A DNA stretch of 63,780 nt, counting the filler, from Reclinomonas americana ATCC 50394 (lineage: Eukaryota), in NCBI GenBank assembly GCA_048213135.1. It is 17 parts of 17 records of this genome, joined end to end, with 100 filler letters (N's around TTAATTAATTAA, not from the genome) between each part and the next. Parts side by side here need not be neighbours in the genome. Positions count along the whole stretch, not along the records: positions 8,973 to 15,978 come from AFZH01021909.1; positions 16,079 to 18,242 come from AFZH01021910.1; positions 18,343 to 19,830 come from AFZH01021911.1; positions 19,931 to 21,717 come from AFZH01021912.1; positions 21,818 to 22,939 come from AFZH01021913.1; positions 23,040 to 26,876 come from AFZH01021914.1; positions 26,977 to 38,076 come from AFZH01021915.1; positions 38,177 to 41,680 come from AFZH01021916.1; 9 more parts are not named here. One strand, given 5' to 3'. Each line of letters opens with the position of its first letter. Within the stretch, counting starts at the first letter, position 1. The position numbers were made by a program, and so were the translations under genes. The notes under the pieces were generated by a model that was given only the letters and a program-made list of their open reading frames with translations, was not told the DNA's origin and ran no database searches. Positions 8,973-63,085 of this stretch are shown in pieces.

Positions 8973-11693
8973 GGTGCAGCGAGTGAGCTTTGGGGAGAGG
9001 CTGGTGAGTAAGGGAGGGGGTGGTGGAAAGAGAGTGCTCGCTCTTCTTTGCTTACATGCAGTGCGGCTGCGTTCTGGCTCTTTTCTCTCTGGTTTTCTTG
9101 TTGTCTCTTCTTGTCTCTCCTTGTCTGTCTTCTCCTTCTCTTATTCCCTCCCTTCCTTCCTGCCTTGTCCCGTCCGTTCTTGCATTCTCTTCTCCTTCGT
9201 CTTCCCTCATTTCCTCCCATCTTGTCCCTCACTCTCTCGTGCACTTCTCACCTTCCTTGTCTCGTCATCCTCCTTGTCTCGTCCCTTCTCCTCTACTCTT
9301 GGATATTTCTTCCAACCATCCCCGTTCCTTCTCCTCTCATTTCCTTGTCGTCTTTGTTCCTCGCTCTCTCGTGACCCTCTTTCCGCTTACTTATCTCGGT
9401 GTCGTCCTTTTTCATGTTGTCTTGTTTCTTCCAGACTGTGTCCCTTCTCCTTTCCCCTCGTTTCGTCTCTCGTTGCCCTCTTTTTCTAGTTCCTCCTTGC
9501 TTGAATCCCTTCTCTTTTTCGTCTCCTACTTCCCTTCGTCTCTCTCTCTCGATGCCCTTCTGTTCTTGTTCCTCTTCTTGTTTGCTCCCGTGGTGTCTTG
9601 TCATTCCTTGTTCCTTCTGCCTTTCCTCTCCACTTTCCTGTTTCTTTTCCTTCCCGTTGCTCTTCACCCTTCTCCAATCCTCTGCAATTCTCGCTTCTTC
9701 CGCATCTCATATCCCTTCTTGTCCTTTCCGCCGTCCTTCCTCCCCTCCGCGTCTCATACTTTCCGTCTTTGTTCAACACCCCTTCATCGCCCTTCTCTCC
9801 TTCTCCGTTCCTTTCCCCCTCCTTCTCCTTTCCCTTTTCCTCCTTCCTTCTAACCCCTTTTCCCTTTCTACAGAACCTCTACGGTGAGCTCACGGCCATC
9901 CCCTTCTCCAACGGCGAGAGCATCGGAAGCGCGATGTGGGCCCTCACCTCGGCCTACCAAAAGCACGTGTACGTCGGCGATCTGGCCCTGCTGCCGAGTC
10001 GCCATCCACAACCGCTGGAGATGCTGGCCCTGCACGATGCCGACGCTGTCATCTTTGGCGACGTGACCACCGAGCGTGTGCCTTCGCAGTCGGCGACGCA
10101 GACGCCACTGACGGTCTCGTACGACAACGCGGTCGAGCAGTTTCTGTTGCGTCTCTTTGCTATCTACCTTCGTTTCCATCTCCCCTTTCTTTCCCTCACT
10201 GGCCTTCTCACCACCCCCGCAGCAAGCACCTGTCGAGCGCCCTCAGTGCCGGCTCCCACGTGCTGGTACCCGTGCACTCGTCGGGAGTGGTGCTCGACCT
10301 GTTGGAGGCCACCTGCCAGCACATTCAGAATCTCAACCTGCGCACGCCCGTGTTCTTTCTGTCGCCGAGTGCCACCAAATGCGTGGCGTACACGGACATT
10401 TGCGCGGAGTGGCTGGCACCGACGCGGACCGCGCGTACCTACGAGCCCATGTTGCCGTTTTCGTTTGCCGAGTTGCAGAATGTTGCGTCTGCACGCAAAC
10501 ACTCTTTGTCAGCTTTCTGTTGTATTGTCGCCTTCTCATCGCACCACAGTCGGGTCAACTCATCACGGACACGGGTCTCACACCGTCGTTCCTCAACCGC
10601 TGGTCGCTGTACGAGCGCTCGGTGGTGTTCGCCTGCCACCCGTCGTTGACCAGCGGACCCGCGGCCAGCTTTCTCGATGCGTGGATCGTGCAAAATCCGA
10701 GCAGTGTGCGCGTACCGTTGGTGATTCACGTGGAGCCGTGGGCATCGCCGTCGTATGTGTCGGCCGCACTGGCCGATGGCAAGGTGGTGCGGCGCGGCGG
10801 CTGCGATCATTTGTTCCTGCCGGTGGTGACGAGGGCGCACAGCGGCCAGGTGGCGCGCCTGTTGCACAAGGCTGGCGCTCGCGCGGCGTGGGTGCCGCAG
10901 AGAAATGCCACGAGCGTGGCAGACTCGCTGAGCGGCACGGTTGGCGGCCCCACTGGTTTGTCGATGCACAACGTCCACTGTCAGTGGCGGACTCACAGAA
11001 CATCTCCTTTTGTGTCGCACAGGCCACGGATGCACGGTGCACTCGTATGTGCCACAGACGCCATTCACCACATCGTCGACGGCGTTGCCGCGGCGTGTGG
11101 CCGTCTCCGCGGAGCTGGCCTCCCAACTCAAGCTGCAGCCGGTTGGTGGCAGCGGACAGAGCTCGACTGGTTCGACGGCAGCCGCCCCTGTCGACGCATC
11201 GCTCGTGATGCGCGACGGTGATTGGCTGGTCGACAGCGGCGAACGCAGCGCCACGGCGTTGCAGCTCGCGGTGCCGTTGAGCGAAGAGATTCTCCTGGGT
11301 GCCTTTCATCGGCGTGGCTTGCCCGACGCCGTGGTTGTCGAATCGGCGGCGCCCGCCGGTGCACACGACGGCGATGCAAGAGGCTCCAGCAGCAGCAGCA
11401 ACGGCGGTGGCCTCGCTCTGCTCGTTCGCGTGCCATCGCTGTCGTCGACCGTGTTGATTCATGGCGGTGGCTCGTTGGTGGAGATCGAGACGGAGGGTTC
11501 TGCCGCGCCGCACGCGCTCATGGTGGACATTGTGAGTGACGCGCAGCGGGTGGCGGTCAATGCACAGTTGCTGAGCACGCAGTCGGCCGGTTTGCTCGTG
11601 GCCGCTGCTGTGGCCGCTTCTGCTGCCGCCACCGCCGGCTCCTCGGCTGGTGCGGCGGTGACCGCCGTCGAGAGAATGGAAGTGGAGTCATGA
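8973..11693 (+). CDS. INTS9: Integrator complex subunit 9 (inactive MBL/beta-CASP), 5' part in gap. Exons <8973-9003, 9874-10145, 10223-10481, 10550-10955, 11023-11693
   Basis: Spliced translation gives GESIGSAMW, RHPQP, GSHVLVPVHSSGVVLDLLE, FLSPSA..AEWL, VVFACHPSL, all matching IntS9 family motifs. Confidence 0.88.
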
Positions 11694-11924
11694 CGATGTC
11701 AATGAAGGATGATTACAGGGAAGAAACTTATAGCAAGCTTTACGGTTGCTGCGACAAGAAGCAAGAGTGCGATGGGAGCACGGACAGACACCTGATCTTC
11801 GTGCACTTACGCCAACAGGGATCCTTCTCTACGAGAACAGATGGTGCATGGAGAGCGAGAACAAAAACAGAAAAGACAAAAATGGCAAAATTAGAAATGG
11901 AGAAGCACTTGTGGTGTCGCACGG

Positions 11925-61493: not shown

Positions 61494-61593
61494 NNNNNNN
61501 NNNNNNNNNNNNNNNNNNNNNNNNNNNNNNNNNNNNNTTAATTAATTAANNNNNNNNNNNNNNNNNNNNNNNNNNNNNNNNNNNNNNNNNNNN

Positions 61594-63085
61594 CGGTCTG
61601 CCGGAAGGGGAGAAGAGGGGAAGGGGTGGGTGGGGGAAGGGTGGGGAAAGGGAAAGGGAAAGAGAAAAAGCAAAACTGAGCTGGCATGCGACATGAAAGA
61701 AAACGAGTTAAGAGCGAGCGAGCGAAAAGAGAATGAGAGAGAGCGAGAGAATGAGAGAGAGAGGAAGAGGAATGGAATGCGTTGCTGGCAGCGGCAACAA
61801 GACAAATGAGAAGAATAAGAGGAAGGAGACATCAACCACAGCGCACGAAAGTCATCTTTCTAACAAATACAAGGACAAGAGTGCTTCCGTGGAGCTTCTC
61901 ACTTCAGAGGCGGCAACGCAACATACGACATACTCGGGGAAGGAAACTGAACCGCCGTTGGCGTGGGTCCTGCGAAGAGAAAACGATGGGCACTCAAAAG
62001 AAAAGAGATCGACAAAACAAACGGCACGCAACAGTGCTTCCAGCGAGTGATAGCCGGCCGCTTCTGTCTTGCGCTCCGTGTGCTCTCTCATCCCTGTATC
62101 GCCGCGTCAACAAAGACAACACTCTTGCAATAACGCTGCTCACAGAAAAACGCAACATGTGGCCACCCGCTCCCGCTTTCCCAAAATCACACGGCACAGG
62201 AACACCTCACGCGGGCACTCCAAACAGTTCTTTCGGCGATGCTCACTGCATTGCTCGTGAGCACCGCGCGAATACATGTCGGATTTGGTGACGTTCTTGC
62301 CGAAATAGACGCCAGCGCCCCCTGCAACCAAGACTATGAGAAAGAGCGAGTGCGTGAAGAATGATAGGCAGGGACGCAACACATGTTGCCCTTGTCTCGT
62401 GAGTAGCGCTCGTCGAAACCATTGAGCAGCACGAGGTTCGGCTGCCGTGAGCCGTGCCATAGGAGCTCCGATACACGCTCGTCAAACACGTCTTCGCAGT
62501 CGAGCTCCTTGGCCACCTCCTGGGCGCGCATGTACCACCATCGCCACATGCGGGGGTCCTGCAGTATGGTGAGGGAGGGGTGAGGGGAAGGGAGAAGTGG
62601 AGAGAGGCGGAGAGGAAGGCGACCCCTTCAAAGTCAAACCATCCCCTCTCCTTTCCCTCACACTCAGTATTCCCTCACTGTCGCTCCCACTCTCTTCCCC
62701 ATCCCTTTCCCTTCCCTCCTCTTCCCCACTTGCCGCACCTGGAAGCGAAACACGCTGACCACCTGCAGATCCGAGTACCCGCCTCCAGGGTTGTTGGGGT
62801 TGTTGCAGTGGTCTGGCGCGATTGAGTCGCGGAATAATCGGTGCACCATTTCGTACTCGTCGGTGAGCTCCTGCACCTGCACGAGAACGCCGCGCTGCAC
62901 GCTTCCACCACTGCCGCTGCCGGTGCCCTCTGCGCCACCGCCCATGAGGGGGATTGGTGCAGCGGGGGTTGGCTCCCTGGGTGAGCAGAGGGTGGATTGG
63001 TAAGAGGGAGGAGTTGCATGTGCATTTGCGAGCGTACCAGAATGGCGGATACACCAGGCCGACAGCCACTTCGGATTTCTGCAGT
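61594..63085 (-). CDS. PARP-family ADP-ribosyltransferase catalytic domain with H-Y-E triad; both ends uncertain
   Basis: YPPFWEP, EYEMV, LLWHGS, GFD, WGAGVYFG...KSDMY, VFLCRVILG, GYHS, PEYVV|YR. Confidence 0.85.

Follow-up and report, generated by a model that had tools for sequence, protein, structure and literature searches.

The window analysed here is a stretch of 63,780 bases from Reclinomonas americana ATCC 50394, which has about 58% G+C, contains 16 gaps and represents intron-rich eukaryotic DNA. Genes were identified by exon-wise Pfam scans and include a WD40 array, IntS9/CPSF2-type beta-CASP genes, RhoGAP, CNOT11, COG3 and COMM-domain genes, a 1,3-beta-glucan synthase, a 5'-nucleotidase-family gene, a cyclin, RRP8, a USP7-like gene, PARP and a gene with teneurin-type EGF repeats. 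Their introns usually measure 57 to 90 nucleotides (nt), are C/T-rich and carry CTCAC or CTCAT 10 to 30 nt ahead of a CAG or TAG end. The present analysis concerns the 5' splice sites (donors) of these introns. Beside ordinary donors, a class with the consensus W/GTTGCG(Y) is used, in which W, the final base of the exon, is either A or T and the slash marks the exon-intron boundary. Very probably this is a frequent second donor class of real GT-AG introns, which has the ordinary 3' machinery in common with the other introns of the window.

According to the preliminary description of this DNA, about 40 of about 105 donors begin with GTT and carry G at +6, mixed with normal donors inside the same genes, and these claims were borne out. 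GTT at +1 to +3 together with G at +6 is present at all 40 of the sites listed below, and the exact hexamer GTTGCG at 31 of them (19/19 on the minus strand, 12/21 on the plus strand). All 40 donors start with GT, and every acceptor in a semi-curated catalogue of introns ends with AG. That catalogue holds 95 introns, 27 with GTTGCG, 10 with other GTT donors and 58 with other donors, so that the earlier estimate is fair for the broad GTT class (37/95), with the reservation that the denominator still contains some doubtful non-GTT predictions. A stricter subset of 37 introns comprised 15 with GTTGCG, four with other GTT donors, 14 with ordinary donors and four others. The strict GTTGCG share is about 28 to 40% of the introns in the window; GTTGCG itself makes up roughly 30%, and the figure comes near 40% when the rarer GTTNNG variants are included. 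Mixing of both classes is illustrated by the gene at 29356-31535, in which 5 of 11 introns have GTTGCG donors.

Gene structures were predicted by dynamic programming, with a donor model consisting of "GT" alone and a codon table trained on the window. The GT-only donor model was chosen in order to keep the test of the motif non-circular. A second gene model (model2) rewards the GTTGCG motif; compared with homology it erred in picking 26553 for 26517 and 20928 for 20961. The catalogue was assembled from model2 genes scoring >40, the EGF gene and manual corrections, and nine model2 introns were dropped on grounds of homology or low complexity. Five listed sites are absent from it: 62380 and 62156 (low gene score), 61922 and 48459 (acceptor entered wrongly) and 55274 (no acceptor set). 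For the stricter subset the donor hexamer was ignored, and introns were required to be 45 to 130 nt long, to possess a branch motif and a YAG end and to have a positive coding score on both sides. The sites on the plus strand, with the evidence for each, are as follows:

10146..10222 (+): GTTGCGT intron of the IntS9-like gene, 77 nt; found by the motif-blind finder and model2; CTCAC lies 12 nt from the 3' end
10482..10549 (+): GTTGCGT intron of the IntS9-like gene, 68 nt; found in 4/4 finder runs, the penalising one included
17977..17983 (+): GTTGTGT donor only, CPSF2-like gene; CPSF2 tblastn matches stop at 17974-17983; acceptor lost in the gap at 18243; rival GTGTAA 3 nt further on
19161..19219 (+): GTTGCGT intron of the CPSF2-like gene, 59 nt; profile rank 1/177; Lactamase_B_6 gapless
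20046..20107 (+): GTTGTGT intron of the CPSF2-like gene, ambiguous, 62 nt; rank 2/277; GTGTAC 3 nt further on scores 2.5 bits less
20651..20723 (+): GTTTCGT intron of the CPSF2-like gene, 73 nt; rank 1/224; all finder runs
20961..21023 (+): GTTGCGT intron of the CPSF2-like gene, 63 nt; rank 2/267, best GT pair
21384..21451 (+): GTTGCGT intron of the CPSF2-like gene, 68 nt; rank 1/357
25186..25290 (+): GTTGTGG intron of the CNOT11-like gene, 105 nt; model2 and frame logic only
26517..26794 (+): GTTGCGT intron of the CNOT11-like gene, 278 nt; Pfam CNOT11 continuity; motif-blind finder
31767..31828 (+): GTTGCGC intron, 62 nt; found without donor information and under penalty
39386..39451 (+): GTTACGT intron of COG3, 66 nt; COG3_C continuity; all finder runs
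39639..39700 (+): GTTGTGT intron of COG3, ambiguous, 62 nt; model2 only; GTGTGA in frame 3 nt further on; Pfam imprecise here
46741..46813 (+): GTTGCGC intron of the 5'-nucleotidase-family gene, 73 nt; Pfam 5_nucleotid from residue 1 of the next exon
46931..46937 (+): donor GTTGAGT without its acceptor, which falls in the gap at 47036; the finder ends the contig inside an intron starting here
47887..47959 (+): GTTGCGT intron of the 5'-nucleotidase-family gene, 73 nt; model2; upstream exon matches the family, junction not pinned
48459..48525 (+): GTTTTGT intron of the 5'-nucleotidase-family gene, 67 nt; flat donor model
53469..54082 (+): GTTGAGC intron of RRP8, 614 nt; rank 1/1587; Methyltransf_8 colinear
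54190..54246 (+): GTTGCGT intron of RRP8, 57 nt; rank 1/145; all finder runs
55274..55280 (+): GTTGCGC donor after a 23-nt first coding exon, no acceptor assigned; motif and frame logic only
57062..57119 (+): GTTGCGG intron, 58 nt; motif and frame logic only

The sites on the minus strand are:

13850..13924 (-): GTTGCGC intron of the EGF-repeat gene, 75 nt; motif-blind finder; flanking exons are teneurin-type EGF repeats
13373..13682 (-): GTTGCGT intron of the EGF-repeat gene, 310 nt; motif-blind finder, EGF gene model
13070..13133 (-): GTTGCGT intron of the EGF-repeat gene, 64 nt; motif-blind finder, EGF gene model
12292..12371 (-): GTTGCGC intron of the EGF-repeat gene, 80 nt; 3/4 finder runs
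22332..22398 (-): GTTGCGC intron, 67 nt; model2 only
27666..27730 (-): GTTGCGT intron of a low-complexity gene, 65 nt; flat donor model
31339..31421 (-): GTTGCGA intron of the 11-intron gene 29356-31535, 83 nt; flat donor model
31038..31108 (-): GTTGCGT intron of gene 29356-31535, 71 nt; 3/4 finder runs
30797..30862 (-): GTTGCGG intron of gene 29356-31535, 66 nt; model2 only
30457..30529 (-): GTTGCGC intron of gene 29356-31535, 73 nt; flat donor model and under penalty
29718..29779 (-): GTTGCGC intron of gene 29356-31535, 62 nt; all finder runs
34495..34562 (-): GTTGCGT intron of the 15-intron gene 32422-37496, 68 nt; all finder runs
33236..33299 (-): GTTGCGT intron of gene 32422-37496, 64 nt; 2/4 finder runs
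49685..49750 (-): GTTGCGT intron of the cyclin gene, 66 nt; Pfam Cyclin_N continuity 84/85/86
49316..49376 (-): GTTGCGT intron of the cyclin gene, 61 nt; all finder runs
62322..62380 (-): GTTGCGT intron of the PARP-domain gene, 59 nt; tankyrase-2 alignment; all finder runs
62094..62156 (-): GTTGCGT intron of the PARP-domain gene, 63 nt; model2, sequence reading
61970..62032 (-): GTTGCGT intron of the PARP-domain gene, 63 nt; sequence reading only
61598..61922 (-): GTTGCGT donor of the PARP-domain gene with a proposed far acceptor, 325 nt; sequence reading

Residue-level homology, in the form of Pfam models, homologue profiles and solved structures, was available to test 11 of the 40 junctions, and all eleven were colinear with homologues (19161, 20651, 20961, 21384, 26517, 39386, 46741, 49750, 53469, 54190 and 62380). 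At 19161 the Lactamase_B_6 match ends at model position 78, four residues are left before the boundary, the split codon is position 83 and the next exon resumes from 84. The cyclin junction at 49750 is equally tight, with Cyclin_N running to 84 in the upstream exon, 85 as split codon and 86 in the next exon. The COG3_C match reaches 100 upstream of 39386 and is followed by six residues and a split codon at 107, with the next exon at 108. For 26517 the upstream CNOT11 match extends to 22, position 23 is the split codon and the match resumes at 24 in the downstream exon, and use of the rival donor 26553 would insert 12 residues. At 46741 the Pfam 5_nucleotid match starts at residue 1 of the next exon, corresponding to profile position 17. 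The PARP exons flanking 62380 match a single tankyrase-2 chain, one as far as residue 103 and the other beginning with residue 110, without a gap at the junction, and the tryptophan codon split by this intron immediately precedes the GAG(V/I)YF motif. Methyltransf_8 continues from 53469 into the exon at 54083, which implies a single 614-nt intron starting at 53469. This RRP8 intron is about ten times the usual length, and model2 wrongly placed two false exons inside it, splitting it into three.

In addition, profile scans were performed in which all in-frame, stop-free donor/acceptor pairs near a junction were scored and any donor dinucleotide was allowed, using a CPSF2 profile built from 67 full-length homologues and an RRP8 profile built from 87. 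In the CPSF2 gene the listed donor ranked 1/177 at 19161, 1/224 at 20651 and 1/357 at 21384; 20961 ranked 2/267, where it was the best GT donor, and 20046 ranked 2/277. In RRP8, donor 53469 with acceptor 54082 ranked 1/1587 and 54190 ranked 1/145, with the next pair 7.3 bits lower. The listed GTT donor therefore came first in five of six any-dinucleotide scans (19161, 20651, 21384, 53469 and 54190) and second at 20961. The ordinary donor 19342, which served as a resolution check, fell outside the top 12 of the CPSF2 scan, so that such a scan resolves to a few codons. A GC donor 3 nt downstream was considered as a substitute and rejected, as it scored 2.6 to 7.4 bits lower in the scans and adds an extra residue at the continuous Pfam junctions.

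Other sites were placed less tightly. Assignment is ambiguous for the three GTTGTGT sites (17977, 20046 and 39639), each of which is followed 3 nt later by a GTGTNN donor in frame. For 17977 and 46931 the acceptor falls in a gap. At 61922 the near acceptor produces a stop codon across the junction and the far acceptor 61598 a tyrosine codon after EYVV; the donor would make sense only with the far acceptor, which is preferred. The intron at 62032 is 63 nt long, a multiple of three, and has no stop codon, and its retention is possible. For eleven of the 40 sites (17977, 22398, 25186, 30862, 39639, 47887, 55274, 57062, 61922, 62032 and 62156) the evidence consists entirely of the motif, frame logic and the motif-rewarding model.

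Searches of public protein collections gave top identities of 58% (a CPSF2 exon) and 64% (an RRP8 exon), so that the organism and its close relatives are evidently unannotated there; protein searches with one PARP exon and one 5'-nucleotidase exon returned no matches, and structure-sequence searches with two nucleotidase exons gave no match. A metagenome scan with a COG3 exon yielded relatives of about 31% identity, too distant for a comparison of donors, and one of 45% over part of the query. An Rfam scan of the window gave no matches.

Several controls speak against the possibility that the motif was picked up by chance. On both strands together GTTGCG occurs 77 times and 31 of these copies are listed donors, compared with donor fractions of 11/96 for GTGCGT and 7/134 for GTGAGT. 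The heptamer GTTGCGT is present in 29 copies, 20 of which are used as donors. Within sense exons there are 11 non-donor copies of GTTGCG and none of them has T at +7, and it looks like the full GTTGCGT motif is avoided inside coding sequence. In the first pass of the GT-only gene finder over both strands, GTTGCG was the commonest donor hexamer (14/115 introns), and after iteration and strand selection it was present in 12/75 introns. When non-standard donors were penalised and ordinary ones rewarded, it was still chosen in 11/89 introns, and nine decoy permutations, with the same four letters after GT, were used 0 times each under the same penalty. Rewarding one motif at a time yielded 0 to 5 uses for the decoys and 24/95 introns for GTTGCG. 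The three motif-blind versions of the finder recovered 12, 16 and 22 of the 40 listed sites and the penalising version 15/40; at least one motif-blind run, the first pass included, recovers 26/40. Literature searches for GTTGCG or GUUGCG as a splice motif returned unrelated papers only, and some genome paper may report it.

To describe the class, base usage around the donors was compared with that of ordinary donors. Among the 31 GTTGCG donors the last exon base is A in 12, T in 14, C in 3 and G in 2, whereas G was found in 19/29 ordinary donors. Position +5 is C and position +6 is G in 31/31, and +7 is T in 20 and C in 8. The latter resembles +6 of ordinary donors (T 17, C 5 of 29), and in this respect the preliminary description, which had proposed a one-base shift such that +6/+7 of the class correspond to +5/+6 of ordinary donors, was accurate. 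Its further claim that these sites are normal donors with an extra T did not hold. GCG occupies +4 to +6 in 31/40 listed sites and is thus near-fixed, compared with about 13/29 ordinary donors having GCG at +3 to +5; ordinary donors use GCG, GAG, GTG and ACG freely, yet GTTGAG occurs in only 2/40 although GTGAGT is common, and G at the exon end is depleted. When read by eye, A or T at -1 was seen to be kept even at several phase-0 introns, where -1 is the third position of a codon and the genome is rich in G+C.

The 3' halves of the introns were similar in both classes. In 24/27 GTTGCG introns a CTNAY motif is located 8 to 50 nt before the 3' end. In both classes this motif is mostly CTCAC or CTCAT, and the pyrimidine share averages 0.68 in GTTGCG introns vs 0.64 in ordinary ones. 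The common CTCAY branch motif, C/T-rich tract and YAG end indicate that the U2-dependent 3' machinery is probably common to both. Small differences were observed in the median branch-to-3' distance (15 nt in GTTGCG introns vs 20 nt in others; Mann-Whitney p = 0.04 in a small sample, uncorrected for multiple tests) and in the use of CTCAT (7/24 vs 3/39 other introns; small numbers, likewise uncorrected). Three further ideas on how the intron is marked were examined and discarded. An ordinary donor motif at +3 to +45 was found in 1/25 GTTGCG introns, which rules out a hidden ordinary U1 site deeper in the intron. Folding of the intron start back onto the remainder of the intron, a feature of structured non-conventional introns, gave -6.3 vs -5.8 kcal/mol and no complement motif. 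Introner-like copies were not apparent either, as the interiors of 25 GTTGCG introns had a mean best local score of 6.9 vs 6.3 when shuffled; the corresponding values for 39 other introns were 6.4 and 5.8.

Subsequently, pairing with U1 small nuclear RNA (snRNA) was calculated with the 11-nt canonical human arm (PMC4856993, Table 2), in a duplex search allowing any register, bulge or loop. The mean best duplex was -1.1 kcal/mol for GTTGCG donors (n=31), compared with -6.7 kcal/mol for ordinary donors (n=33) and -3.0 kcal/mol for random GT sites of the window (n=600). GTTGCG donors thus pair with canonical U1 more weakly than random GT sites (Mann-Whitney p = 1.7e-6). The weakness can be read from the motif: beyond GU, a shifted or bulged register provides no more than one wobble and two pairs, with a mismatch where C is fixed, and exon-end G, which would contribute another pair, is avoided. 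A hypothetical arm with ACGCAAC gave -11.0 for the class vs -4.7 for random GT sites, while one tuned to GTGCGT discriminated poorly (-7.0 vs -5.7). According to these calculations the standard U1 5' arm would have essentially no pairing potential with a GTTGCG donor in any register, and the predicted energies are hard to reconcile with a normal U1 that reads a third of the donors. Reading of the donors by normal U1 in the shifted or bulged register put forward in the preliminary description is therefore not supported by the duplex energies, nor by the exon-end base, which is G at only 2/31 donors; a variant U1 or U6 or altered proteins, which it had also mentioned, are now the better bet.

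How could such donors be recognised? We consider it close to an even call, if slightly short of one, that they are read by a U1-like arm, either altered or extra, whose sequence complements GUUGCG(U), after which U6 acts one nucleotide further in. The donor would be bound by an RNA arm unlike the canonical one, belonging either to a second U1-like snRNA or to a changed U1, with ACGCAAC in its 5' arm. The G at +6 and the U at +7 would later be paired by U6, one nucleotide beyond the usual distance from the cleavage site, and U at +3 would stay unpaired. Both the GCG core, which hardly varies, and the avoidance of exon-end G may then be the marks of a dedicated and already strong duplex. In its fuller form, a dedicated U1-like or U11-like snRNA with an arm complementary to GUUGCG(U) would mark about a third of the introns, which would then enter the ordinary U2-dependent pathway with U6 out of register by one, amounting to a two-code system in one major spliceosome; this form is put forward tentatively, as a possibility falling somewhat below even. 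Several points count against this interpretation and the class on which it builds. The variant arm is one that we purely infer, and we know of no organism in which a natural U1 paralogue devoted to a separate donor class has been shown. A and T are used alike at the exon end, which no single complementary nucleotide explains. The duplex energies were computed without pseudouridines, U1C and U1-70K, and with the human arm. The boundaries are predicted from genomic sequence and homology. The gene finder is weak, with this window as its whole training set, and 14/40 listed sites were missed by every motif-blind run, 3 of these 14 being homology-supported; given the weakness of the finder, the missed sites are not refutations.

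Four other explanations were weighed against recognition by a variant arm. A single canonical U1 might serve both classes, with its register shifted by one or with U at +2/+3 bulged, additional energy being contributed by U1C, LUC7-type or other proteins and cleavage at GU being fixed by U6 and U5. From +3 onward the logo of the class does match that of ordinary donors from +2 onward, an exon-end A (12/31) could form a pair with U10 of U1 if the register is shifted, and both the bulge at +2/+3 and shifted registers have been proven in human cells, as presented in PMC4856993. We nevertheless regard this explanation as rather unlikely, since its predicted pairing, whatever the register, falls short of that of random GT sites, C is fixed at +5 although A would pair there (GTTGAG 2/40), exon-end G is depleted although it would add a G-C pair to the bulged register, and T matches A in frequency at the exon end, which is not expected from a shifted register. 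Moreover, by the figures given in Tan et al. (2016; PMC4856993), the human bulge +2/+3 register accounts for 54 to 68 of 201,541 donors and all validated noncanonical registers for 1.5%, so that a share of about 30% would need strong extra help. Improbable, too, is a transformed and expanded minor (U12-type-like) system, in which U11-like and U6atac-like RNAs have co-evolved with a new donor motif. Such a system is described for Physarum polycephalum, where minor-intron signals and snRNAs co-evolved and U12-type introns number >20,000 (Larue, Elias and Roy, 10.1101/2020.10.12.336362). A second, rigid and extended donor without exon-end G or U1 complementarity, interspersed with ordinary introns, is what the accounts in that work present as hallmarks of U12-type introns, in Physarum also with high copy number, and the branch distance and CTCAT usage are weak hints at the 3' end. 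The donor GTTGCG(T/C) is, however, unlike the U12-type donor [G/A]TATCCTT, and the branch motif is CTCAY as in ordinary introns and not TTCCTT[G/A]AC (motifs as given in 10.1101/2020.10.12.336362). Furthermore, GTTGCG introns are equally pyrimidine-rich, and the differences seen at the 3' end are slight and carry no correction for multiple testing.

Recognition might also proceed without an snRNA arm, if a sequence-specific RNA-binding protein or the tri-snRNP (small nuclear ribonucleoprotein; U6, U5, Prp8) directly read W/GUUGCGY. This would suit both the absence of canonical U1 pairing and the preference for A or T at the exon end, which fits no single pairing partner, but there is no positive evidence for it, and a near-invariant motif of 7 nt is more typical of RNA-RNA pairing, as in U12-type and yeast introns; we assign it a low probability. 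The A-or-T preference itself is explained by none of the readings, the rivals included. Finally, the boundaries could be misplaced or the extra T could be an assembly artefact, with the true donors being nearby ordinary GT or GC sites. The boundaries are read from genomic DNA, the assembly is fragmented (16 gaps in 63.8 kb) and the three GTTGTGT sites have an in-frame, ordinary-looking donor 3 nt downstream. Either possibility is highly improbable given the exact colinearity at 11 junctions and the decoy controls, which speak against chance; in addition, random insertion of T cannot hit a third of the donors, keep the frames and shift the exon-end base, and the GC-donor alternative scores lower in every profile scan.

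The variant-arm interpretation can be set beside several known systems. Roca and Krainer reportedly described in 2009 a shifted U1 register at human 5' splice sites. Like human sites with noncanonical U1 registers, the GTTGCG donors have an extra U after GU, G/U at +6/+7 and cleavage at GU; of the features belonging to the Roca and Krainer sites, G/U at +6/+7 was thus found and better U1 pairing in a noncanonical register was not. The human sites are rare exceptions and gain canonical U1 pairing in the new register (as far as PMC4856993 presents them), whereas GTTGCG donors, with a share of 27 to 37 of 95 introns, do not, and unlike the human sites their motif is rigid (GCG) and without exon-end G. 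As in GC-AG introns, a minor donor class would be handled by the major spliceosome, but GTTGCG introns start with GT, and the GC reading is rejected by colinearity. Among the characteristics of U2-type introns, GT-AG ends, a branch motif with pyrimidine tract and a colinear protein (11 junctions) were found, and G at +5 and U1 complementarity were not.

With respect to a changed arm, engineered suppressor U1s demonstrate that changed 5' arms redirect U1 to non-standard donors, and we know of no natural variant U1 arm that serves a genome-wide donor class. Variant U1 snRNAs are reported to be expressed in human cells (O'Reilly et al., 2013, PMC3561869); those are expressed, sequence-changed copies, as that report presents them, whereas the variant considered here is one that we only infer. 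If a dedicated snRNA arm does exist, it would be a rare natural case of co-evolution between a core splicing signal and a core snRNA. The authors of the Physarum work state that such joint evolution has so far been reported only for the U12 branch site of that organism (10.1101/2020.10.12.336362). The system would further offer a natural experiment on the handover of the 5' splice site from U1 to U6 with the two helices out of register. Intron recognition has few rules as general as G at +5 and pairing with the U1 arm, and both underlie gene finders and splice-site models. With about one in three introns carrying C at +5 and having no canonical U1 pairing, genes of this kind would be badly mis-annotated by standard tools.

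Some features outside the donor class were also observed in the window. All 16 gaps are written as 44 N, the 12-base stop linker TTAATTAATTAA and 44 N. Microsatellites flank many gaps, and CA, GA or GT repeats adjoin the gaps at 18243-18342 and 47036-47135; as a consequence of these two gaps, exons of the CPSF2 and nucleotidase genes are missing. Just upstream of the CPSF2-like gene, at 16650-17740 (+), open frames contain recurring peptide-like segments, which suggests a tandem repeat of roughly 170 nt. Positions 1-8811 (+) contain WD40 coding blocks in tandem, with five exons of about 340 residues that have seven WD40 repeats apiece. The introns of this array are near-identical, 216 to 234 nt long, and start with GTGAATGA or GTGGA(T/C)CC, neither of which is one of the main donor types. 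At 41782-43452 (+) lies a 1,3-beta-glucan synthase fragment (Pfam Glucan_synthase, E = 3e-32) with two ordinary donors, and its nearest Atlas clusters are haptophyte and plant callose synthases.

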